Assembly (NCBI GenBank): GCA_963675595.2
Contig: CAXXLZ010000002.1
Coordinates: 416,001 to 480,000, forward strand
Length of the DNA stretch: 64,000 nucleotides
Source: Thermodesulfobacteriota bacterium
GTDB taxonomy: Bacteria > Desulfobacterota > Desulfarculia > JACQYL01
Direction of reading: 5' to 3'
How positions within the stretch are numbered: the first letter of the stretch is position 1; every line of letters begins with the position of its first letter. Under the pieces are notes generated by a model. The model was not told where the DNA came from. It did no database searches and saw nothing but the letters and a program-made list of their open reading frames with translations. A program made the position numbers and the translations under genes. Of the stretch, positions 1 through 40,561 are shown piece after piece.

Positions 1-396
1 CATCTTCAGTTGCTGTGCCGACTCCTCCCCGGAAACGTAGAGTGTGTCCAAACCCTTCTTCTGCAAAGCGGCCAACGCCTGCAGCATGAGTGTGGATTTT
101 CCGATGCCGGGATCTCCGCCCACCAAAACCACCGACCCGGGAACCAGACCGCCGCCGAGGACCCTGTCGAGTTCCCCGATCCCACTGAGTATCCGATCCT
201 CCGCACCCACGACCACGTCGTTCAACGACTGAAGCGCGCCGCCCAACGGAGCGTTGACGGATTCCTCCGCCGCCTTCTCCTCCCGGGTTTCTTCCTCGAA
301 GGTACCGAATTCCCCGCAGCTCGGGCACCGACCCAGCCATTTGGGAGCTCGACTGCCGCAACTCCCGCAGACAAAGACCGTCTCAGTGTTCTTCAT
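1..396 (-). CDS. radA: DNA repair protein RadA/Sms, N-terminal part (runs off the window start)
   Basis: Manual minus-strand translation from ATG at 396: MKNTETVFVCGSCGSRAPKWLGRCPSCGEFGTF (C4 zinc finger), then ELDRVLGGGLVPGSVVLVGGDPGIGKSTL (Walker A) and LYVSGEES. Not in the ORF track because it is truncated. Confidence 0.95.
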   Translation of the reverse strand, partial: MKNTETVFVCGSCGSRAPKWLGRCPSCGEFGTFEEETREEKAAEESVNAPLGGALQSLNDVVVGAEDRILSGIGELDRVLGGGLVPGSVVLVGGDPGIGKSTLMLQALAALQKKGLDTLYVSGEESAQQLKM

Positions 397-418
397 AAAT
401 CGGTCTCATGTGCCGACC

Positions 419-1165
419 TTAAAGAGCCGCTTCATTGCGGAACACCTCTTCGACTTTGGCCACATCTCGGGGCGTATCCACTTCCATGGAATCGAACGCG
501 GTGATGACCACCTGGATGGGCGCGCCGTAGTCCAGGGCACGAAGCTGCTCCAGCTTCTCGGCTTCTTCCATGGCGGAGGTGGGCCACTGGGCGAAGGTTC
601 TCAAAAAATGCCGGCGGTAGCCGTAGATTCCGTGATGTTTGTAGTAAGGGATTCGGCCCTCGCCCCCCCGGACGTGAGGAATGGTGGCTCGGGAAAAATA
701 AAGGGCACGACCCCTACGGTCGAAAACCGTCTTCACGATGTTGGGATCGTCGATTTCCGAAGGGTCCGTTATCCGATAGATCAGCGTGGACATGGGCAGT
801 TCCGGGTCCGTGACCAGTGGAGCCGTTACCTCGGCGATCTGCACCGGATTAAAGCAGGGTTGGTCTCCCTGAATATTCACCACCAGGTCTTCCTCCGGCA
901 AGCCGAGTTTGTCGGCCGCTTCGGCCACTCGATCGGTCCCGCAACGCACGTTGGAGGAAGTCATAATGGCCTCACCTCCGAAATCGCTCGCAACCTCCAG
1001 AATCCTTTCGTCGTCCGTGGCAAGCACCACGCGATCCACCAGAGGACTTCGGGCCGCGCGTTCGTAGACGTGCCGGATCATGGGCTTGCCGGCGATGAGA
1101 GTCGTCGCCTTGCCTATGAAGCGGGTGGACTCGTACCGGGCGGGAATGACGACCGTAACGCGCAT
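419..1165 (-). CDS. kdsB: 3-deoxy-manno-octulosonate cytidylyltransferase (CMP-Kdo synthetase)
   Basis: Motifs VIPARYESTRF, GTDRVAEA, VNIQGDQP, ALYFSRATIP, HHGIYGY, EKLEQLRAL, VDTPRD. Confidence 0.95.
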   Translation of the reverse strand: MRVTVVIPARYESTRFIGKATTLIAGKPMIRHVYERAARSPLVDRVVLATDDERILEVASDFGGEAIMTSSNVRCGTDRVAEAADKLGLPEEDLVVNIQGDQPCFNPVQIAEVTAPLVTDPELPMSTLIYRITDPSEIDDPNIVKTVFDRRGRALYFSRATIPHVRGGEGRIPYYKHHGIYGYRRHFLRTFAQWPTSAMEEAEKLEQLRALDYGAPIQVVITAFDSMEVDTPRDVAKVEEVFRNEAAL

Positions 1166-1491
1166 AAGTAATTCCCTCCGACGGGATCATAATGTACGAT
1201 TCGAAACGACGAAGACTCGCCGAATCACAGGTGAAACCCGTTCTCCAGACGCTCCGGGCGCTGAAAGAGTCGTTACCATATCACAGGGCATTCGCCTTTG
1301 TGCACTGTTTTCCTCCGGGCGAAAAGGTATGCCCGCAAGAGGGGAATGCCTGCGGACCCGAGTTCCTTTCCAAGCGTCTTTGGTTCGATTTTCAACCGTG
1401 AAGCCGGCCCCCGGAACTGGACCTCCCACACTCTTCCATGCTAATAAACGTGGAACGCTTTTCGGAAAAAACTGCGTGAAGGGAGTCCGTC

Positions 1492-2073
1492 ATGGAAGAT
1501 CTCCTCGTGCGGCTGAAGCAGGCCATCCTGCCTTATCATGACGAAGTGCATCGGTTGCCCATTCTCAGAGACCTGCCGTCGGGAAGGGTTGCGCTGTCGG
1601 AATACCGCCGCCTGCTCGAACGGCTTTACGGATTTTGGGAACCGGTGGAAGCCGCTGTCGAAGCCTTGATCCCCTACCGTCCGGAGGCGGCGGTCTGGAA
1701 CCCGAGAGTTCCCTTGCTCGCCCAAGACTTGGCCTTTCTGGGAGTCGCTCCCTCCGCCCTGGAATCCATCCCCCGATGCCGTCGAACGCCCGAATTCATG
1801 AAGCAGGGTGAGGCTTTGGGGTATCTATACCTGTCCGAAGGATCGAGGCTCGGCGGCAGAATGCTGGGAGACATCGTAGAGAAGGCTTTGGCGCTTACGC
1901 CCTACTCCGGCTTTGCGTATTTCAGCTCCGATGGAGCCGACGTGGAGAAGATGTGGAGCGTGTTTCGAGATTTTCTCCGGTCCCATGCGAAAGTCCATCA
2001 TCTGGACAAAGAAATCATCCATGCTTCACGGAGCGGATTCGCCGCATTGAACCGGTGGCTGACCGAATTGTAA
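1492..2073 (+). CDS. Biliverdin-producing heme oxygenase (BphO/HemO-like)
   Basis: LKQAILPYHDEVH (proximal His), R.PLLAQDLAFLG, ALGYLYLSEGSRLGG (conserved YxxEGSxLGG), W..F..FL. RBS GGGAG upstream. Confidence 0.85.
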   Translation: MEDLLVRLKQAILPYHDEVHRLPILRDLPSGRVALSEYRRLLERLYGFWEPVEAAVEALIPYRPEAAVWNPRVPLLAQDLAFLGVAPSALESIPRCRRTPEFMKQGEALGYLYLSEGSRLGGRMLGDIVEKALALTPYSGFAYFSSDGADVEKMWSVFRDFLRSHAKVHHLDKEIIHASRSGFAALNRWLTEL

Positions 2074-2273
2074 TACGGTCCACTCCGAGGTTACGACCGT
2101 TCTCCATTCCGCCCGCCGTCGGTGCGGGCTGCGCTCGGACTTTTCGCCATTCGATTTTCGGCGGCACTTGGGCCGAACATGAGCATTTTTCACGGGATTA
2201 TTGTATGATGAATCCCATTCACATTCGTCCCTCTTCAAGAATCGGATATCCCATCAGGATTGGAGTGCCCTGT

Positions 2274-2888
2274 ATGACTCACGAGGAATTCCAACCCGCC
2301 GAGGACCCCAAGGACTCCCAAGAGTTTTCCGTCATCGGATTGGGAGGATCGGCCGGCGGTTCGGAAGCGTTCGAGGAATTCTTTTCCCAACTCCCGCCGA
2401 AGTCGGGCTGCGCCTTCGTAATGGTTATGCATCTGGATCCTCATCACAAATCCATGCTGCCCGAACTGATCTCCAAAGTCACCGACCTCGACGTCACACA
2501 AGCCGAGGACGCAACGGAGGTGGAGCGGAACAGGATTTACATCATTCCCCCCAAAGCCACCATCACCATATCGGACGGAGTGCTGAACCTTACCGAACCC
2601 GCGCTGGAAAGGGGCGTCAGACGACCCATCGACGATTTCTTCAGATCGCTCGCCCAAGACCGCAAAGAACGTGCGGTGGGAATTCTGTCTTCGGGAACCG
2701 GTACGGACGGCACACAGGAACTTAAAGAAATCAAATTCGCCGGGGGGATGTCCATGGTTCAGGACCCCAGCACGGCGAAATTCGAGAACATGCCCCAGCA
2801 CGCCATCACGAGCGGCGTGGTCGACGTGGTGCTGCCGGCCGGCCAACTCGCCGCGCGTCCGGCCGAATCCCAAGGAGGGGCGAAATGA
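2274..2888 (+). CDS. Stand-alone CheB-type methylesterase domain (looks like the N-terminus of a CheB/CheR fusion; possibly truncated)
   Basis: IGLGGSAGG, VMHLDP, RRPIDDFFRSLA, SGTGTDG, QDPSTAKFENMP. No receiver domain and no CheR part. Start placed at ATG 2274 behind GGAG. Stop overlaps the next ATG (ATGA). Confidence 0.8.
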   Translation: MTHEEFQPAEDPKDSQEFSVIGLGGSAGGSEAFEEFFSQLPPKSGCAFVMVMHLDPHHKSMLPELISKVTDLDVTQAEDATEVERNRIYIIPPKATITISDGVLNLTEPALERGVRRPIDDFFRSLAQDRKERAVGILSSGTGTDGTQELKEIKFAGGMSMVQDPSTAKFENMPQHAITSGVVDVVLPAGQLAARPAESQGGAK

Positions 2889-3949
2889 CGGAAGCGCTCT
2901 TAAGGCATAAGGAACTCCGAAAACAGCTGTCTTCCATCTCAGAAGCGGTGGTCGCCTGCCAGTACGCATTGGAGCCCGAAGTCTGGGAGCCCTACGGACA
3001 GGCCGGATGGGAAAAAAGCCTGAGGGACCAGGAGTTTCATTCCTCCTACCTTGCCGAAGCGGTGATGTTCTCGGACCCGTCGCTGTTCATCGACTACGTT
3101 AACTGGCTGAAGCAGCTTTTCACGGCACTGCGGTTTCCCGAGAAAAGCTTGAGGACCATGCTCGAGTGCACGCGCAAGGTCATAGATGAAGAGCTGCTTT
3201 CGCATGAAGGCGCCGCGGCTTCGGCCTACATCGAAAAAACTCTCGTCGAGCTGCACACCATGCCGGAAATCCCACCGACCTTTCTGCCCGATGGCGCTCC
3301 CTTCGTGGATTTGGCGCGGGAATACCTGGAGCTGCTGCTCCACGGTGATCGGAATCAGGCAGGTCGCCTGATTTTGGACAAGGCGGAAGCCGGCATGCAT
3401 GTCAAAGACATCTATCTACGCGTGTTTCAGCCGACTCAGTACGAAATCGGAAGACTTTGGCAGATCAATCGCATCACCGTGGCCCAAGAACACTTCTGCA
3501 CTGCGGCGGCTCAGACGATCATGTCTCAACTTTATCCGTTTGTTTTCAGCGCCCAAAAGACCGGTCGTCGCTTGGTGGCGGCCTGCGTGGGGGGTGAATT
3601 GCACGAGATCGGCGCCCGCATGCTCGCCGATTTTTTTGAAATGGACGGGTGGGATACGTATTATTTGGGAGCGAACACGCCGACGGATGCGGTGGTTCGC
3701 ACCATTCTGGATCGGGATACTCACTTATTGGGCCTCTCGGTCACCATGACGTTCCACACGCGATTCGTGGAAGAACTGATCCGTAAAGTACGTTCGTCGG
3801 AAGCCGGTCGGATACCCATTCTCGTGGGGGGATACCCTTTCAACGTCGCTCCCCGGCTTTGGCAAACCCTGAGGGCGAACGGCTCCGCCCGGAATGCCGA
3901 GGAAGCATTGAAAATCGCGGATAGGCTGATCGGGGAACCTCTCGTCTGA
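2885..3949 (+). CDS. Cobalamin-binding protein with an N-terminal globin/phycobiliprotein-like domain (photocobilin-like)
   Basis: C-terminal B12 domain ELHEIG...GWDTYYLGANTP...LSVT...LVGG. Four-helix cap with W-x9-EH (WQINRITVAQEH). N-terminal ~125 aa helical domain with KSLRD..FH..YL. Confidence 0.8.
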   Translation: MTEALLRHKELRKQLSSISEAVVACQYALEPEVWEPYGQAGWEKSLRDQEFHSSYLAEAVMFSDPSLFIDYVNWLKQLFTALRFPEKSLRTMLECTRKVIDEELLSHEGAAASAYIEKTLVELHTMPEIPPTFLPDGAPFVDLAREYLELLLHGDRNQAGRLILDKAEAGMHVKDIYLRVFQPTQYEIGRLWQINRITVAQEHFCTAAAQTIMSQLYPFVFSAQKTGRRLVAACVGGELHEIGARMLADFFEMDGWDTYYLGANTPTDAVVRTILDRDTHLLGLSVTMTFHTRFVEELIRKVRSSEAGRIPILVGGYPFNVAPRLWQTLRANGSARNAEEALKIADRLIGEPLV

Positions 3950-4023
3950 AATCGAGGGATCTTGGCAGTCCGATTCCCTGTTTGCTTCGATTCTTCTCGA
4001 CAAGATAGGCTTATTGAGGAAAA

Positions 4024-4734
4024 ATGAACGAACGGAATTCTCCATCAGGCTTGGCCCTGCGGTGTACCCCGCACGGAGAGATCATCGAGGTCCTGCGAGA
4101 CGACCTCGGGTTGACCGACGGCATCGAGGTCGGAGTTCCGCTGACCTCACTTGTCGATCGAGCCTCCCTCGGTAAGCTGCTCAACTTCCTGGTCGAGATG
4201 AGAACCCGGGGAAGCACCTCCCTGTGGTCCTTAAACGTCGTCCGGGAGGGCCGCATCGAGTCACTGTCCTTTGCCGGCACGATGCGGGAAGATGAACAGA
4301 TGGTTTTCGCCGCACATACGGGGACGGAGGCAGTCAACCTGTCCCGCCGGTTGCTCGGAGAGCCGTCAGGCAAGGAGGTTCCCACCGTTGTTGCGCCCCC
4401 GTATAAGTCCGATCCGGAGCTTTTCGACGAGCTCAGCCGACTGAATAACGAGCTGGTCAACCTTCATCGAGAATTGGCCAAGAAGAACGCCGAACTGGAA
4501 AAAACAAACCACCGACTCCAGGAAGCGATGGCCGAGATCCGAACGCTCCGAGGATACCTTCCCATCTGCATGTACTGCCACAAGATCCGTGATGACAAGG
4601 AAAACTGGTTACGCCTCGAAAACTACATCGAATCGCATTCCGACGCGCGGTTCAGTCACAGCATTTGCCCGGACTGCACGAAAGAGCATTTCGGGGACCT
4701 CTTCGAAGATGAAGCTGATGGAGAGGAGAAGTAG
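4024..4734 (+). CDS. Signal-transduction protein: PAS-like domain, coiled coil, C-terminal Cys-rich (CxxC...HxxCxxC) domain
   Basis: Coiled coil LSRLNNELVNLHRELAKKNAEL. C-terminus LPICMYCHKIRDDKENW...FSHSICPDC is typical of deltaproteobacterial signalling proteins. No kinase or GGDEF output domain. Confidence 0.75.
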   Translation: MNERNSPSGLALRCTPHGEIIEVLRDDLGLTDGIEVGVPLTSLVDRASLGKLLNFLVEMRTRGSTSLWSLNVVREGRIESLSFAGTMREDEQMVFAAHTGTEAVNLSRRLLGEPSGKEVPTVVAPPYKSDPELFDELSRLNNELVNLHRELAKKNAELEKTNHRLQEAMAEIRTLRGYLPICMYCHKIRDDKENWLRLENYIESHSDARFSHSICPDCTKEHFGDLFEDEADGEEK

Positions 4735-4798
4735 ACGAGGGGAGGAGCCCTTATAAAGAGCGCCTCCCCTGCTGTAGACGATGCAACCTACAGAGGGC

Positions 4799-6001
4799 TT
4801 ATCCGATCGCTTGACCCGCTTTGGCGACGGCTTGCCGGAGCTTGGGCAGATCGTTTTCCATGAGATTGTTGATGGGGATGACCAGGGTCTTCCGCATGAT
4901 CGCGTCGGACTTGGGAAGAGCGTCCGGAGAATAGGCGAGGCGCCCGGAACCGTCTGGGTTTCGGAAGGGCCAAGCGGAACGAAGCACGGATTTCCCCTCC
5001 AGCAGATGTTCCCAGTTGCGGTAATAGTGCCAGGTATTGTCGAAGAAGTTCACGGCGCCGCAACCCTCCCCCGCCAGGGCTTGGTTGAACTTCCTCGCCT
5101 GTTCCTCCGAAGGCAGAGAGAAGGCGAGAAAGGTCGCAGTGTCTCCCGTCGGGTCCGGGAGTCTCCGGAACGAAACACCGGGCACCTTTTCCAGAGCTTC
5201 CTTCAAAGCGGCTTTGTTGGCCCGCTGCATGCGGAGAATGGCGTCCAATTTCGAAAGCTGCGCCAGTCCCAAGGCCCCCTGAAGCTCCATCATACGGTAG
5301 TTCATGCCGATGAATCGCCGTTTCTCGAGCCCACGTCCCACGTTGGGATCATGGTCATGACCGTGGTCATGGTATTCCGACGCGTTCACGTACAGAGCTT
5401 CGTCGTTGGTGATGATCATGCCTCCTTCGCCCGTGGTGATGGTCTTCACGGAGTCGAAAGAGAATGTGCCGCAAGAGCCGAAAGTGCCCAGAGCCTTGCC
5501 GTTCAACGTTCCGCCGCAGGCCTGCGCGGTATCTTCTATCACGGCCACTCCACGATCACGGGCGACCTCCACGATGGGTTCGATGTCCGCCATGCCCCCC
5601 AACATATGCACGGGAATCACGGCCCGGGTCTTGGGCGTGATCTTCTTTGCCAGGTCTGCGGGATCCATGCAAAGGGTTTCGTCCACTTCCGTGAAAACCG
5701 GCTCGGCGCCGCAATCGAGAATGCTTTCCCATGTGGCCACAAAGGTGAAACCTTGGGTGATGACTTCATCTCCGGGACCGATACCCAAAGCGGCCAAGGC
5801 CACCCTGAGAGCCGCCGTACCCGAGGATACGGCCAGGGCGTGAGCGGCGCCCGTTCGGTCGGCGAATGCCTTCTCGAATTCCTCGACTTTGTATACGCCT
5901 TTGCGCTTCTCACCGAACTCATAACGGAACAGTACGCCTCGAGAGAGCACGTCCAGTATCTGGTCCTTCTCTTCCTCACCCAACAGCTCAAAACCGGGCA
6001 T
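4799..6001 (-). CDS. kdnA: DegT/DnrJ/EryC1/StrS PLP aminotransferase, KdnA-like (8-amino-Kdo synthesis)
   Basis: SSGTAAL, EDTAQA, FSFDSVKTITTGEGG (PLP Lys). Features recalled from Shewanella KdnA: N-terminal MPGFEL.G.EEK, DHGHDH, WHY..NW.H, PKSDAIM. Family assignment is firm; kdnA orthology is inference. Confidence 0.75.
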   Translation of the reverse strand: MPGFELLGEEEKDQILDVLSRGVLFRYEFGEKRKGVYKVEEFEKAFADRTGAAHALAVSSGTAALRVALAALGIGPGDEVITQGFTFVATWESILDCGAEPVFTEVDETLCMDPADLAKKITPKTRAVIPVHMLGGMADIEPIVEVARDRGVAVIEDTAQACGGTLNGKALGTFGSCGTFSFDSVKTITTGEGGMIITNDEALYVNASEYHDHGHDHDPNVGRGLEKRRFIGMNYRMMELQGALGLAQLSKLDAILRMQRANKAALKEALEKVPGVSFRRLPDPTGDTATFLAFSLPSEEQARKFNQALAGEGCGAVNFFDNTWHYYRNWEHLLEGKSVLRSAWPFRNPDGSGRLAYSPDALPKSDAIMRKTLVIPINNLMENDLPKLRQAVAKAGQAIG

Positions 6002-6012
6002 GAAAACCTCCG

Positions 6013-7167
6013 TTAGAAAGCGTTCCTGTAAATCTCCAACGCGTCTTCGAATTGAACGGGTTTCGGATTGTTGGCCATGGGCCGAGCCACCTTCAGAGAG
6101 CCTTCAGCCATCTCTTCCAGGGAATCCTCGGGAATATCCAGACTTCCCAGGTTTTCAGGGATTCCGATGTCGGAAGAAAGCTGAAATACGGCATCCACGG
6201 CCTCCAGGGCGCAATCCCTGAGGGAAAGGCCCTCGCAGCACACACCCAAAGCTTCCGCAAGGCGCGCAAAGCGCTCCATGGCCGCAGGCACGTTGTATTC
6301 CATAACATGGGGCAGGAGCACGGCGTTGGCGGTTCCGTGGTTGATCCCGAACAAAGCGCCCAACGGATAGGCCAGCGCATGCGCCGCGCCCACTCCGGCA
6401 TTGGCCAGCGCCATGCCGGCGCAGTAACTCCCGAAAAGCATCCTCGAACGGGTTTCCGCTACCTCTCCCCGATACACGGCGTTGCGGAGATTGGCACCGA
6501 TGAGGCGCACGGCCTCCAGAGCGTAAAGGTCGCTCGCGGGGTTGGCCTGCCGAGACGTAAAGGCCTCGATGGCATGGGTCAACGCGTCCATGCCTGTGAA
6601 CGCGGTGACTTTTGGAGGACACCCCATCGTTAGTTCGGGATCCAGCAAGGCCAGGTCGGGGAACATCTTTTCATCGTTGATGCCGCCCTTGCTTTTGGAT
6701 TCACGCATGGTGAACACCGCGGTAAAGGTGACTTCCGCACCGGTGCCCGCAGTGGTGGGAATCAGGATGGAGGGCAGCCCTTTCTGTTTTACCAGGCCCA
6801 GTCCGATATAATCTTGAGCGGAGCCCTGATTCTTGGCGAGCATGGCCACGGCCTTGGCCACGTCCATGGAACTGCCTCCGCCCACGCCGATGACCGCCTG
6901 TGCTTTGTGCTCGCGTGCCAGAGCCGCACCTTCATCCGCCGACGCCGGAGACGGCTCAGGTTCCAGATTCGTAAACAATTCCGCTTTAACGGAGCCTTGT
7001 TTCAACGGTTCCAAAATACGCGAAGGCATGCCCGTTTCCGCCAGGCCCCGATCCATGACGACCAGAACTCGTCGGGCTCCCAATTTCTTGGCCTCGTCCG
7101 CAAGCCCCGAAACGGCTCCACAGCCGAAGACCGTTTTTCCGGCCCCTTGTATGGCAAACTGGCTCAT
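6013..7167 (-). CDS. Iron-containing alcohol dehydrogenase, candidate KdnB (Kdo 8-oxidase)
   Basis: GGGSSMDVAK, IPTTAGTGAEVT, GMDALTHAIE, AHALAYPLG...HG.ANA. Start at ATG 7167 behind GAGG. Directly upstream of the kdnA-like gene. Confidence 0.8.
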   Translation of the reverse strand: MSQFAIQGAGKTVFGCGAVSGLADEAKKLGARRVLVVMDRGLAETGMPSRILEPLKQGSVKAELFTNLEPEPSPASADEGAALAREHKAQAVIGVGGGSSMDVAKAVAMLAKNQGSAQDYIGLGLVKQKGLPSILIPTTAGTGAEVTFTAVFTMRESKSKGGINDEKMFPDLALLDPELTMGCPPKVTAFTGMDALTHAIEAFTSRQANPASDLYALEAVRLIGANLRNAVYRGEVAETRSRMLFGSYCAGMALANAGVGAAHALAYPLGALFGINHGTANAVLLPHVMEYNVPAAMERFARLAEALGVCCEGLSLRDCALEAVDAVFQLSSDIGIPENLGSLDIPEDSLEEMAEGSLKVARPMANNPKPVQFEDALEIYRNAF

Positions 7168-7410
7168 TCTTTTCCTCTTTTCTCCTTGAAATAACGGCTT
7201 GCTCCAATGATCGACGGGGGAAACTCCAATAAGGAGCATACCCCCGTCGGTCCTGTTGTTCGGATATATCCGCCGCGCTCGTGCCGCACAATCCCGGGCC
7301 CTGCCGGAGCGCGCCGGCCCGAGAAAATTCGTCCGCCCGAGTCCTCACCGCGAGACATGCCCATCGAACCCGATGGGTTCGATTACCGTCTCCCGCGGCG
7401 AGGTATAAGG

Positions 7411-7794
7411 TCAATAGTGGGGCGTCTGTTCATAATAGTAGGCACAGGCATCGTCGGATTCCCACGCCGCCACTTTGTCCACACGCACGAGACTGCGGTT
7501 CAGCTTCTTGGATATCTCATCAAAAATGTAGCGGGCGATTCTCTCCGACGACGGATTCTCCGTCTTGAACGGCTCCAAATCGTTGAGGTGCTTGTGATCC
7601 AGCTCCTCCAACACCTGATACGTCGCGTCCTTGACCTCTTTGAAGTCTATCAGAAGTCCATTTTCATCCAGTTCGGACCCCCTGACCCACACTTCCACCT
7701 TCCAGTTATGGCCGTGCAAGGCTTCGCACTTGCCCTTGAAGTTCTTCAGGCTGTGGGCCGCAGAAAAACTCGTAATGATCTTCAGTTCATACAT
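7411..7794 (-). CDS. queD: 6-carboxy-5,6,7,8-tetrahydropterin synthase
   Basis: FSAAHSL, KCEALHGHNW, LIDFKEVK, LDHKHLN, NPSSERIA, WES. Start is 7794 or 7803. Confidence 0.93.
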   Translation of the reverse strand: MYELKIITSFSAAHSLKNFKGKCEALHGHNWKVEVWVRGSELDENGLLIDFKEVKDATYQVLEELDHKHLNDLEPFKTENPSSERIARYIFDEISKKLNRSLVRVDKVAAWESDDACAYYYEQTPHY

Positions 7795-7916
7795 ACTTGT
7801 CATTTCCTCGCCAAAGCTTGAATCCCGTCGGTGGAATACGGCTTCCGTCAGGCCGCGGCTCCGCGGAAACCGCACTTCTCGAAACATTCGTTCCGCACGA
7901 GGCCGGCATGAACTTC

Positions 7917-8171
7917 TCAGACGGGATCACCCGTGTAAGGTTTGCCGCAAATCTGGCATTTCCCGTTTTTTCCGATGACTCCGATACAAGATCCGTCGGA
8001 ACAGAGTTTTCGCTTGGAGAAGTCCGTCTCCTCCACTATGACTTCTTTCTCTTTCTCGTCGGGCAACGGTTGACCGCACCGACAACAAAACTTGCTGCCC
8101 GAGGGGGAGTGACCGCTGCAATGGGGACACACCTCGTGAGGAATTTCGTTACCGCAATCCGGACATCTCAT
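7917..8171 (-). CDS. Small zinc-ribbon protein (double zinc ribbon plus C-terminal Cys cluster)
   Basis: CPDC, CPHC, FCCRCG and RKLCSDGSCIGVIGKNGKCQICGKP. Confidence 0.75.
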   Translation of the reverse strand: MRCPDCGNEIPHEVCPHCSGHSPSGSKFCCRCGQPLPDEKEKEVIVEETDFSKRKLCSDGSCIGVIGKNGKCQICGKPYTGDPV

Positions 8172-8555: not shown

Positions 8556-8816
8556 ATGGAAGGAAAACACGAACACCAGCATCTGCACGCCCACGAGCAC
8601 GAGCATGTTCATCAACACGAGCACAGCCACGGAGACCAGGTGCATTCCCATGAACATGAGCATGTTCACGTTCACGAACATTCCCACGAACACATTCACG
8701 AGCATGTTCACGGCGACGACGCCCACACCCATGACCACGATCACCATGGAGAACATGGTCTCCATCATCACGATCACCCGGGGCACGAGGGGGAAGTCCA
8801 CGGCCACGCCCATTGA
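8556..8816 (+). CDS. Histidine-rich small protein (putative Ni/Co/Zn-binding)
   Basis: 37 of 86 residues are His, mostly in strict HX alternation. Has its own promoter, RBS and terminator. Confidence 0.8.
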   Translation: MEGKHEHQHLHAHEHEHVHQHEHSHGDQVHSHEHEHVHVHEHSHEHIHEHVHGDDAHTHDHDHHGEHGLHHHDHPGHEGEVHGHAH

Positions 8817-37925: not shown

Positions 37926-39344
37926 ATGGCGTTTGAACCCCAGGAAGAACAAAAAGGATTAAAATACGAGGAGCTGCGCATCTACTCCGATGAAGAGCTG
38001 CACAACTATACGGAGGATGAGCTCAAGAATTTCAAAATCAAGCACGAAGTCCCGATGTGCGAGGACTTGGAAAAGGGTCCGTGGCCGAGCTTTGTCGCGG
38101 ACGCCAAGCGCTGCGCCCTGCATCGGAGAAAGCTGTCCGACGATCGCATGCTGATCGAACGGGACGTTGTCGAAGATTTGCTCGGCCAGCTCGAGCTTTC
38201 CTTCAAAGAGGGTGAAACTCACTGGAAACACGGCGGCATCGTGGGCGTCTTCGGTTACGGCGGCGGCGTCATCGGGCGTTACTCCGATATGCCCGAACAA
38301 TTCCCGTCCATCGCCCATTTCCACACCATGCGCGTCAATCAGCCCGCGAGCAAATTCTACGACACGGACTACCTCCGGACGCTCTGCGATTTGTGGGAAT
38401 ACAGGGGCAGCGGCATGATGAACATGCACGGCTCCACCGGTGACATCATCTTCCTGGGAACTTTTACGGAACAGCTCGAGCCCATTTTCTACGAGCTCAC
38501 CCATAAGCTTGACCAGGACCTCGGCGGCTCCGGCTCGAACCTGCGTACCCCGTCCTGCTGTATCGGCAAGGCCCGCTGCGAGTGGTCCTGCTACGACACC
38601 CAGGAAATGTGCTACCAGTTGACGCACTTCTACCAGGACGAACTGCATCGTCCCGCGTTCCCCTACAAGTTCAAGTTCAAGTTCGACGGCTGCCCCAATG
38701 GTTGTGTGGCCTCCATCGCCCGTTCCGATATGTCGTTCATCGGAACCTGGAAAGACGATATCCGGATCGATCAGGCTGCGGTCAAGGCCTACATCGGCGG
38801 AGAAATCAAGCCCAACGCGGGCGCGCACGCCGGTAAAGACTGGGGCGCTTTCGACATTCAGAAGGAAGTCATCGACCTGTGCCCCACCAAGTGTATGTGG
38901 ATGGAAGGCGGCGAGCTGAAGATCGATAACGCGGAATGTACCCGCTGCATGCATTGCATCAACACCATGCCGCAGGCGCTGCGTCCGGGAACGGATACCG
39001 GCGTGACCATCCTTTGCGGCGCCAAGGCCCCCATCCTGGAAGGCGCTCAGATGTCCGTGCTCACAGTGCCCTTCATGAGAGCCGAGCCTCCGTACGACAA
39101 CGTGAAAGCCGTCGTCGAAAAGATATGGGATTGGTGGATGGAAGAAGGCAAGAACCGGGAACGTCTGGGCGAGCTCATTCAGCGCCAGGGCCTCCCCAAG
39201 TTCCTCGAGATGCTCGAACTGCCGCCCATGCCGCAGAACGTGAAAGAACCTCGAAGCAACCCGTACATCTTCTGGAAGGAAGAAGACGTGCCCGGCGGCT
39301 GGCAGCGTGACATCAACGAATACCGTTCCCGACATAAGAGATAG
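37926..39344 (+). CDS. dsrA: Dissimilatory sulfite reductase alpha subunit
   Basis: [60 protein letters not shown]. Confidence 0.98.
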
Positions 39345-39370: not shown

Positions 39371-40561
39371 ATGGCATTATCCACTGAACGACTTGGTCTG
39401 TTTAATCCTGATAAACCGATGGAAAACCGAATCACCGATTTGGGGCCCCGTCACTACTGGCAGTACTTCCCTCCCGTGATTCAGAACAACTACGGGAAAT
39501 GGAAATACCATGAAATCCTCGAACCCGGCGTTCTGGTTCACGTGTCCGAAACCGGGGACAAGGTCTTCACCGTGCGCACGGGCGGTTGCCGTTTCATGAC
39601 CGTTGAGAACGTGCGCGAAATCTGCGACATCGCCGATAAATACTGCGGCGGTCATCTGCGCTTCACCACCAGAAACAACATCGAATTCATGGTGGACAGC
39701 CAGGATAAGCTGGACGCTCTGAAGAAGGACTTGTTGAGCCGCAAGCACGTCTCCGGCAGCTATAAGTTCCCCATCGGCGGAACCGGTGCCGGTTTGACCA
39801 ACATCGTCCATACCCAGGGCTACCTGCACTGCCACACGCCCGCCACGGACGCCTCCTCCATGGTCAAGGCCGTGATGGACGACCTGTACGAGTACTTCAC
39901 CAGCATGACCCTGCCCGCCCAGGTGCGGGTATCCATGGCCTGCTGCCTCAACATGTGCGGCGCGGTGCATTGCTCCGACATCGCTCTGTTGGGATACCAT
40001 CGCAAACCCCCCATCGTGGACGGCGAAGTTCTTCAGTCCGTCTGTGAAATTCCTCTGGTCATCGCCGCGTGCCCCACGGCCGCCATTTCCCCGGCCAAGA
40101 CCGATGAAGGCAAGAAGTCGGTGAAGATCAAGGAAACCCGCTGCATGTTCTGCGGTAATTGCTACACCATGTGTATGGCGCTGCCTCTTTCCGACAAGGA
40201 CGGCGACTGTGTGACGATTCTGGCCGGCGGCAAGATCTCCAACCGGATCAGCATGCCCAAGTTCTCCAAGGTCGTCATCCCGGCGCTGCCCAACAACTTC
40301 CCGCGGTTCCCGGAAGTGTGCCAGTCCGTGAAAAAAATCATCGAGGCTTACGCCGCCGGCGCGAACAAGTACGAACGCATCGGTGACTGGGCTGAGAGGA
40401 TCGGCTGGGAACGCTTCTTTGAAAAATGTGATCTGCCCTTCTCCGATCACTTGATCGACGACTACCGCTTGGCTTACGATACCTTCAGAACGTCGACGCA
40501 GTTCAAGTACACCGACGCTTCCTGGGCCGTGACCGAAGCGGCGGAAGGTCTGTCCGAGTAA
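39371..40561 (+). CDS. dsrB: Dissimilatory sulfite reductase beta subunit
   Basis: [56 protein letters not shown]. Confidence 0.98.

Follow-up and report, generated by a model that had tools for sequence, protein, structure and literature searches.

The stretch of DNA analyzed here, referred to as the window, is 64,000 nucleotides (nt) from a Thermodesulfobacteriota bacterium (contig CAXXLZ010000002.1), and the cassette under study is located at positions 1492-4734 of its forward (+) strand. It is composed of four genes: a heme oxygenase (HO), a CheB-like esterase, a sensor that joins a photoglobin to a B12 domain, and a partner protein with a PAS fold and a C-terminal domain with four cysteines (Cys4). 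On balance, these genes probably form one operon for a self-supplied light sensor of the photocobilin type, with a direct, kinase-free output. An initial annotation had described four co-oriented genes here, and all four open reading frames (ORFs) are present on the (+) strand. On both sides, the cassette is bordered by opposite-strand genes (419-1165 and 4799-6001).

The photoglobin-B12 sensor

The third gene (2885-3949, +) encodes the sensor, a protein of 354 amino acids (aa). In species-representative genomes, 280 relatives were found. The best 80 of these 280, which are 40-54% identical to the sensor over the full length and come from many phyla, are referred to as the related loci. The sensor alignment contains 77 sequences, namely the window and 76 of the 80 related loci; L015, L031, L048, and L075 are split or truncated and were dropped.

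The three best solved sequence relatives of the sensor are the photocobilin structures 8J2X, 8J2W, and 8J2Y (E 3.6e-25 to 2.6e-19). Residues 146-347 align to the N-terminal half of photocobilin and residues 39-103 to its C-terminal biliverdin domain, and the domain order is therefore reversed. The N-terminal photoglobin, a phycobiliprotein-like globin domain (residues 1-128; 2885-3268, +), contains S45-L-R-D48 and W74. It is followed by a B12-binding_2 four-helix bundle (3314-3532, +; PF02607, E 4.7e-16) with W192-x9-E202-H203, and by a B12-binding Rossmann domain (3569-3910, +; PF02310, E 4.5e-23) with E238-x-H240, the site of the lower axial His. Both B12 matches are above their cut-offs. 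On the single sequence, the Pfam Phycobilisome match to residues 11-120 is sub-threshold (19.9 bits vs 22.2). The profile of the 128 N-terminal residues, made from the 77 sequences, matches allophycocyanin beta (8DDY_B, E 1.6e-8), with S-L-R-D over C-L-R-D, and also the biliverdin domain of the photocobilin SasPcob (8J2X, residues 230-320; E 4.6e-8).

An AlphaFold2 model of the sensor from the 77 sequences has a predicted local distance difference test (pLDDT) score of 94.3 and a predicted template modeling (pTM) score of 0.88. Its top Foldseek matches are 8J2W, 8J2X, and 8J2Y (E 1.6e-9; root-mean-square deviation (rmsd) 1.7 over 208 columns), followed by the B12 domains of CtMerR and CarH. 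The fold comparison with 8J2W and 8J2Y covers the B12 part only; the reversed order keeps the globin part outside a sequential aligner. The initial annotation had described a globin- or phycobiliprotein-like domain joined to a B12 domain with W-x9-EH and ExH, and profiles, Pfam, and invariant residues agree with it. It had also likened the protein to photocobilins, as the best PDB sequence and Foldseek matches now do, and had proposed a structure prediction of 2885-3949 as a check; in its B12 part, the resulting model resembles photocobilin and then the CarH B12 domains. Judged by these matches, the sensor is of the photocobilin, or photoglobin-B12, type. No helix-turn-helix family, MerR-type included, was found in the sensor, and the NCBIfam CarH model covers residues 132-269 only (50.6 bits vs 400).

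The cofactor residues of SasPcob were taken from the text of PMC10979010, and the numbering offset was set by His108 and Trp61. Trp61 of SasPcob corresponds to W192 of the sensor, Glu71 and His72 to E202 and H203, and His108 to H240, all of which are invariant in the 77 sequences. In the photoglobin, Asp270 corresponds to D48 (conserved in 75 of 77 sequences) and Trp296 to W74 (conserved in all 77). Position 45, the Cys site of phycobiliproteins, is Ser in 30 of the 77 sequences, Cys in 27, and Tyr in 10, and the window has Ser. With Ser in place of Cys, a thioether-free mode of bilin binding, like that of SasPcob, is plausible. Non-covalent bilin binding had been proposed from the motif KSLRD, and the replacement of CLRD by SLRD makes this a plausible property of the sensor.

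Heme oxygenase and presumed bilin supply

The first gene (1492-2073, +) encodes a 193-aa heme oxygenase, the presumed supplier of biliverdin. Pfam Heme_oxygenase (PF01126, E 3.2e-14) matches the protein over its full length, at model positions 2-203 of 204, with 53.7 bits (cut-off 23). In an alignment with Corynebacterium HmuO (1IW0), H16 falls on the His at chain position 20, which we take to be the proximal heme ligand. The host genome, which is 98% complete in 3 contigs, has a single match to PF01126, this gene, and a single match to the photoglobin profile, the sensor gene. A PduO-type adenosyltransferase is also encoded in the host genome.

The initial annotation had called the oxygenase BphO-type. 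The full-length PF01126 match bears out the enzyme family; the bacteriophytochrome that would partner a BphO, in the operon or elsewhere in the genome, was not found, as PHY (PF00360) and PAS_2 (PF08446) have no match in the host genome and recovered the control genome, Deinococcus radiodurans. A phytochrome elsewhere in the genome had been named as an outcome that could explain the oxygenase in another way, and this candidate is rejected; the search covers phytochromes carrying those two domains, as distinct from bilin-binding GAF proteins without them. Models of ferredoxin-dependent bilin reductases had no match across the host genome and likewise recovered their own control genome.

A heme-degrading gene is located beside the sensor in 31 of the 80 related loci, where it is an IsdG/MhuD-like ABM gene in 27 and a canonical HO in 4. 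By unsupervised clustering of neighboring ORFs, the ABM gene is on the same strand as the sensor and ends 15-98 nt before it in all 27 loci, and Pfam ABM is above its cut-off in each of the 8 upstream small genes sampled. When one ABM copy was searched for solved relatives, these were TT1380 (function unknown), then HmoB, MhuD (Rv3592), and IsdI/IsdG. The four canonical HO genes are divergent and about 200-370 nt upstream, and all are from Desulfomonile or 'delta' metagenome-assembled genomes (MAGs). Together, the window and these 31 loci place one of two unrelated types of heme-degrading enzyme next to the sensor. Heme oxygenases and IsdG-type enzymes use O2.

Two genomes of the same order as the host (G003 and G004) do not encode a fused sensor. 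Their HO is followed by a photoglobin-like region within one ORF (L083:1420-3524 (-) and L084:2-2097 (+)); the region is recovered in L084 by our own hidden Markov model (HMM; E 9.2e-6) and in L083 by hhalign (59% probability, E 9.3e-5). A stand-alone gene for a B12-binding_2 domain plus a B12-binding domain adjoins each of these ORFs and is 36-40% identical to the B12 part of the window sensor. By domain content, this arrangement is a split form of the sensor module. The initial proposal that the oxygenase supplies the bilin of the sensor is supported by the single HO and single photoglobin in the genome, the 31 linked loci, and this HO-photoglobin fusion.

A further gene was observed at L034, the locus nearest to the window in a quick tree, where a Pyridox_ox_2/PNPOx-like gene (L034:8496-8990) comes after the sensor-kinase pair. 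This superfamily includes HugZ-type heme oxygenases and F420-dependent biliverdin reductases.

The partner protein

The fourth gene (4024-4734, +) encodes the partner, or output, protein of 236 aa. No Pfam or NCBIfam family matches this product, and no Pfam PAS model matches it either. Its AlphaFold2 model (pLDDT 88.8) is composed of a PAS fold at residues 10-97 (4051-4314, +), a long signaling helix, or coiled coil, at residues 131-175 (4414-4548, +) that includes LSRLNNELVNLHRELAKKNAELEK, and a small C-terminal domain, the Cys4 domain. The PAS-fold domain superimposes on ARNT PAS-B (5Y7Y_B) with a VIA-align Z of 12.8 (rmsd 1.9 over 93 residues), numerous PAS and LOV chains score Z 9-12, and Foldseek gives E 2e-5. 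The protein had been read as PAS-like and coiled-coil with a Cys-rich end, and the model contains these parts. A full-length ortholog that is 63% identical to the partner exists (P0001).

Similarity to the partner is found by phmmer in 60 of the 80 related loci. An HMM of residues 5-100 places a partner-type domain on the same strand, starting 11-82 nt past the aligned end of the sensor, in 49 of the 80, and the sensor stop and the downstream start frequently overlap or abut. In most of the 66 ORFs scanned with Pfam, the PAS-like domain is followed by HisKA and HATPase_c. GGDEF follows it in L037, L049, and L077, and nothing follows it in L059 or in the window protein, where Pfam finds neither HisKA nor HATPase_c. 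Between the PAS-like domain and the output is a conserved helix (LSRLNNELxNLQRELAKKNAELE), which leads into the HisKA H-box in the kinase partners; N141, N142, and R149 of the window partner are invariant in 44 of 44 sequences. Fused proteins are also found in which the photoglobin-B12 sensor itself carries HisKA and HATPase_c (L003:529-2721; L076:5947-8550 and L076:1428-5276 (-)), with PAS, receiver (REC), and Hpt domains added in L076.

As the gene pair is conserved and often overlapping, the partner is likely to bind the sensor. The predicted complex of the sensor with partner residues 1-175 has a score of 0.56, compared to 0.06 for the best of three controls, with contact agreement of at least 63% between runs and a partner pLDDT of at least 71. 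Of 157 solved complexes, 116 reach the mark set for such predictions, as do 2 of 215 mismatched pairs. The complex prediction lends weak support to binding.

The Cys4 domain

The Cys4 domain (4549-4731, +) is composed of 60 residues and contains the motif C182-x2-C185-x29-C215-x2-C218. Both CxxC pairs, along with R189, W195, and H212, are invariant in an alignment of 29 Cys4 sequences, and the pattern reads LPIC..CKKIRDD.G.W...E.Y...HS.A.FSH.ICP.C. The CxxC spacing presumably resembles that of rubredoxin. Neither Pfam nor NCBIfam has a family for the domain, and the best match of its profile among PDB sequences has an E of 0.34. Its ESM Atlas clusters are all named 'hypothetical protein' and have no Pfam family, and 43 Cys4 homologs also carry generic names, most of them being roughly 200 aa with Response_reg as their sole Pfam domain. 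In a wide VIA-align search with the whole partner model, the list was filled by PAS-domain matches. Topic searches of the literature turned up neither the Cys4 domain nor this cassette. The two CxxC knuckles suggest that Cys4 is a Zn- or Fe-binding domain, and a putative effector.

The host genome encodes 18 Cys4 copies (L094-L111), mostly located C-terminally after REC, REC-PAS, PAS, SBP_bac_3, or GAF domains. The exceptions are one copy ahead of GGDEF (L107) and one stand-alone protein of 83 aa (L105). Among the 80 related loci, 5 encode a Cys4 protein no more than 2.2 kb from the sensor, and so do 3 of 10 loci drawn from an even sampling of the phylum. In L023 and L187, the order is sensor, kinase, and REC-Cys4, with REC-PAS in L187. 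A hybrid kinase and then REC-Cys4 are found in L062, and REC-PAS-Cys4 is 0.9 kb downstream of the sensor in L195. L018 encodes GAF-Cys4, L032 dCache-Cys4, and L189 a divergent 177-aa Cys4 protein, and the partners in L059 and L117 are built like that of the window. Chance adjacency is unlikely in L187, L189, and L195 because their genomes hold only 3, 3, and 5 Cys4 copies, respectively, in 4.0-4.8 Mb.

Metagenome loci were also collected with the partner protein, and all 59 matched mainly via Cys4. The four-gene cassette is in none of these 59, and a sensor gene lies directly upstream in 2 of the 59, which were in effect picked via the Cys4 domain alone. In our reading of these neighborhoods, the usual path would run from sensor to kinase to a REC-Cys4 regulator. 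Since the PAS fold and helix head kinases elsewhere, and Cys4 ends nearby regulators in several Thermodesulfobacteriota loci, the window partner looks like the input part of a kinase joined to the output part of a regulator, with the kinase replaced by Cys4.

The CheB-like gene

The second gene (2274-2888, +) encodes a receiver-less CheB-type methylesterase/deamidase domain protein of 204 aa. The CheB_methylest match (PF01339, E 5.2e-50) lies inside the ORF 1953-2888, and Ser, His, and Asp in GGSAGG, MHLDP, and GTDG align with the CheB structures 6YMZ and 3SFT; we take these positions to be the catalytic triad. This agrees with the CheB-like esterase of the initial annotation. Response_reg has no match on the longest CheB-like ORF, and the NCBIfam CheB models stay below their cut-offs (109.8 bits vs 342 and 89 vs 293). 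The start is most likely ATG 2274, which has GGAG upstream. A 1-nt insertion in two related assemblies, an additional C behind position 2249 in the gap between the HO and CheB-like genes, argues against the longer starts at 2205 and 2208, whose frame it would interrupt.

The CheB-like stop overlaps the sensor ATG at ATGA (2885-2888), and an AAGGAGG Shine-Dalgarno sequence is 8 nt upstream; this coupling element spans 2871-2888 (+). Such tight translational coupling suggests a role for the CheB-like protein in the sensor module. A CheB gene directly adjoins the sensor in 0 of the 80 related loci and is about 5 kb from it in 2, which makes the CheB-like gene of the window a local addition.

The same genome encodes a 1095-aa protein with the architecture CheB_methylest-CheR_N-CheR-PAS_10-PAS-Cys4 (C2:2237468-2240755 (-), equal to L112:969-4256), and its CheB domain shares 48% identity (E 2e-53) with the CheB-like protein. 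An ABM gene (C2:2233884-2234096) is 3.4 kb from the gene of this protein.

Locus and host genome

The oxygenase and CheB-like genes are 200 nt apart. A promoter and terminator scan returned 3 promoter-like sites (shuffle mean 1.3) together with 4 that are terminator-like (shuffle mean 4.3), and Rfam returned zero matches in 1-8000 at E <= 0.1, hence no cobalamin riboswitch was found there. Contigs that come from two other studies, and are roughly 93-98% identical over this stretch, show the same gene order; HO-CheB is spanned by one of them and CheB-sensor-partner by a second. These are close strains and do not count as independent evidence of selection. The exact order HO-CheB-sensor-partner was met solely in such near-identical assemblies. 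The survey of gene neighborhoods proposed in the initial annotation thus has a divided outcome: linkage to a heme-degrading gene and to a PAS-like partner recurs, and an adjacent CheB gene and the exact order do not.

The initial annotation had placed the cassette in a sulfate reducer. This fits a dsrA match in the window (38061-39320) above the NCBIfam cut-off (585.6 bits). A weaker dsrA-like match, probably dsrB, follows at 39566-40456, and the pair corresponds to contig positions 454061-456456. By these matches, the host possesses a dissimilatory sulfite reductase.

Also in the window is an 86-aa ORF (8556-8816, +) that is almost wholly His/Glu repeats (HEHEHVH...) and is covered by an antisense ORF; it may encode a metal-binding peptide or be non-coding.

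Distribution of the sensor

Taxa with sensor relatives include Anaerolineae, Desulfomonile, Verrucomicrobiota, Paenibacillus, Methanobacteriaceae, and Adhaeribacter. In the even phylum sample, 12 of 401 genomes, the host included, match the sensor at E <= 1e-40, and most belong to two families. Among 10 near-full-length loci of this sample, several of which stop at contig ends, HO is found in 1, ABM in 1, a PAS-kinase partner in 4, a Cys4 protein in 3, and none of these in 4.

A quick tree built from the 77 sequences places the window together with L034 and L059 (SH-aLRT 87), and this group sits in a well-supported set of 23 that also contains the four HO-linked loci. Nine sensors from Methanobacteriaceae (L041, L042, L044, L046, L064, L067-L069, and L078) form a well-supported clade. 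No ABM, heme oxygenase, or PAS-partner gene was found near these nine, and two sampled genomes of the clade have no PF01126 match. At L041, the neighboring genes scanned encode NucS, an iron-dependent repressor, and a GMC oxidoreductase.

In the relatives G002, G009, G012, G014, G018, and G019, several of the B12-domain matches contain a single in-frame TAG, and a few contain TGA; these may mark pseudogenes, gene boundaries, or read-through codons.

Proposed mechanism

The light-sensor reading can be laid out as four steps. In the first, the heme oxygenase would cleave heme to biliverdin, which requires O2 by the chemistry of the family. The sensor would then take up adenosylcobalamin (AdoCbl), with H240 below the cobalt and W192, E202, and H203 around the adenosyl group, and would hold biliverdin non-covalently in the N-terminal photoglobin through D48 and W74. 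In the third step, green light on AdoCbl, or red light via biliverdin, would break the Co-C bond and alter the dimer state. This has been described for SasPcob and AbDPcob, in which green light (AdoCbl) or red light (biliverdin) breaks Co-C and shifts the dimer state (text of PMC10979010). Finally, the PAS-fold domain of the downstream protein would read the change in the sensor by protein-protein contact, and the signal would run along the conserved signaling helix to the Cys4 domain, which would act on its target.

The initial annotation had also proposed a light and/or O2 sensor, a step that we only infer. A putative gating of the sensor by O2 would be chemically plausible. In its furthest form, the cassette would be a phosphorelay-free 'surface alarm' of an anaerobe that combines light and oxygen sensing, a Cys4 effector, and a CheB-like reset. 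As biliverdin would form only once O2 enters the cell, the fully loaded two-pigment sensor would report light and oxygen together. A dedicated PAS-fold adaptor would drive the putative metal-binding Cys4 output directly, Cys4 would be a widespread two-component effector in Thermodesulfobacteriota, and the coupled CheB-like esterase would reset the system by covalent modification, as in chemotaxis adaptation. We consider this combination unlikely as a whole.

Alternative explanations

Several observations weigh against a self-supplied light sensor with direct output. Judging by its dissimilatory sulfite reductase, the host probably spends most of its life away from O2, and may also live in the dark. 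No heme-degrading gene was found in the fetched flanks of 49 of the 80 related loci, and PF01126 has no match in 4 of 5 sampled carrier genomes (two Methanobacteriaceae MAGs, one Chloroflexia MAG, and Adhaeribacter aquaticus). Among 30 taxonomic relatives of the host, from family to class level, there are B12-domain matches only and no full-length sensor ortholog. Binding of biliverdin and AdoCbl is predicted from residues; the nine Methanobacteriaceae sensors retain D48, W74, and the B12 signature, and since D48 and W74 are kept in a clade with PF01126-negative sampled genomes, these residues are by themselves no proof of bilin binding. One cofactor residue is not kept in the window sensor: A269 takes the place of SasPcob His137, which forms a salt bridge to the bilin propionate across the dimer (text of PMC10979010). 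On the output side, a 9-residue helix piece conserved in the kinase partners (INNEQxNxLR) is missing from the window partner, and the complex score of 0.56 is a weak pass, as just 18 of the 157 solved complexes, along with both passing mismatches, reach the mark with scores of 0.60 or less.

The sulfite reductase, the carrier genomes without PF01126, the 49 loci without a nearby heme-degrading gene, and the close homologs in Methanobacteriaceae and Anaerolineae MAGs would all suit a dark sensor of corrinoid supply or cobalt redox, in which the globin shields the corrin and the HO serves heme or iron turnover. We regard this as improbable, about as much so as the surface alarm. W-x9-EH, a light-responsive signature according to the text of PMC10979010 and PMC11796333, is invariant in 77 of 77 sequences, the bilin-site residues are kept almost throughout (D48 in 75, W74 in 77), two unrelated heme-degrading families recur beside the sensor, and HO is fused to a photoglobin-like region in relatives. 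A little less probable still is a sensor mainly of O2 exposure, for which biliverdin binding is the signal and light is secondary or unneeded. No sequence feature separates this explanation from the light reading, and both enzyme families consume O2 while the host is probably an anaerobe. According to the text of PMC10979010, SasPcob couples the binding of AdoCbl and of biliverdin allosterically, and its effect on a cyclase inverts with vs without biliverdin; the same text describes biliverdin-only SasPcob as having no light response and reports no output of its own for it. The sensor type is also found in aerobes, such as Paenibacillus and Adhaeribacter, which argues against O2 exposure as the main signal. 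Least probable, and in our view very much so, is that the neighbors share no function, with the HO serving iron acquisition or heme detoxification, the CheB-like protein being chemosensory, and only the last two genes cooperating. The rarity and distance of CheB in the related loci, the 200-nt gap, and the uninformative promoter and terminator scan fit this view. They are set against four co-oriented genes between opposite-strand neighbors, the ATGA overlap, the heme-degrading genes beside the sensor in 31 loci, and an order that is kept in assemblies from two other studies. The self-supplied, photocobilin-type light sensor remains our preferred reading.

Comparison with known systems

Photoglobin-B12 fusions in both domain orders, and HO or ABM genes in their operons, are already in print (PMC8717448 and PMC10979010). 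Like the fusions of Schneider 2022 (PMC8717448), in which the photoglobin is placed before or after the B12 domains, the window sensor joins the two in one protein. The text of that work describes photoglobin-B12 operons with histidine kinases, response regulators, and GGDEF proteins, and the legend of its Fig. 4 names the neighbors 'ABM monooxygenase, hemeoxygenase' and covers a drawn heme oxygenase-photoglobin architecture. The PAS-fold partner domain and the Cys4 output are unnamed in its text, with its figures outside this comparison. More broadly, the PAS-fold partner domain, the Cys4 output, and the CheB-like insertion were not found in the literature searched, which was covered as text, figures and supplements aside.

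Photoglobins belong to a lineage of bilin-binding globins tied to heme oxygenase and B12 proteins (text of PMC10151467, PMC13446030, and PMC11796333). Like the BBAG-2 clusters of Myxococcota (PMC10151467), the window combines a globin of the photoglobin lineage, a B12-binding protein, and a heme oxygenase. In the BBAG-2 clusters, separate genes encode the globin and the B12 protein, and a pre-2 bilin reductase often accompanies them; in the window, the two are one protein, and the host genome gave no bilin reductase match. BBAG-2 is described as biliverdin-specific and lacking CXRD (Rockwell 2023, PMC10151467). The window sensor has S-L-R-D, compared to the CXQD reported for photoglobins in the same text. 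The recurrence of two unrelated heme-degrading enzymes in the upstream slot bears on how this kind of sensor obtains its bilin.

Like CarH (TtCarH, 5C8D/5C8E), the sensor contains an AdoCbl module with W-x9-EH and the lower axial His, with a TMt of 0.8 to the cobalamin-binding domain. Unlike CarH, which acts directly on DNA, it has no MerR-type DNA-binding domain, and its output is proposed to pass through the partner protein. In TtCarH, the upper-ligand His directly follows the Trp; in the window sensor W192 is followed by Gln, which SasPcob also has at this position. The light state of SasPcob is not bis-His (text of PMC10979010). The CheB-like protein resembles the CheB/CheR-PAS_10 fusions, as its identity to the host example indicates, and differs from them in being the esterase domain alone, without CheR, PAS, or receiver. 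The Cys4 domain to which the sensor is linked lacks a family entry and often follows receiver domains in sulfate reducers and related organisms; learning its target would give access to a whole class of response regulators. If the reading holds, a B12 photoreceptor for light or oxygen in an anaerobe that reduces sulfite would be of interest to the ecology of mats and sediments.

The closest comparison is with the photocobilins SasPcob and AbDPcob (8J2W, 8J2X, and 8J2Y), which were characterized only in 2024. The window sensor shares their B12-binding_2 domain and B12-binding domain, with W-x9-EH and E/DxH, and their phycobiliprotein-like globin without the covalent Cys, in which the equivalents of Asp270 and Trp296 are kept. 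In both solved photocobilins the globin is C-terminal, and in the window it is N-terminal; predicted photocobilins carry the AdoCbl domain at either end (Zhang 2024, text of PMC10979010). Unlike SasPcob, with His137, the window sensor has Ala. The window locus adds an adjacent HO, a CheB-like gene, and a PAS-fold/Cys4 partner, which are not in the text of PMC10979010, its supplementary genomic-context figures being outside this comparison. For stand-alone photocobilins, that text gives the function as unclear and proposes control through protein-protein contacts. The window sensor would act in the same way, and the PAS-fold domain and conserved helix encoded downstream in 49 of the 80 related loci provide a concrete candidate partner for stand-alone photocobilins.

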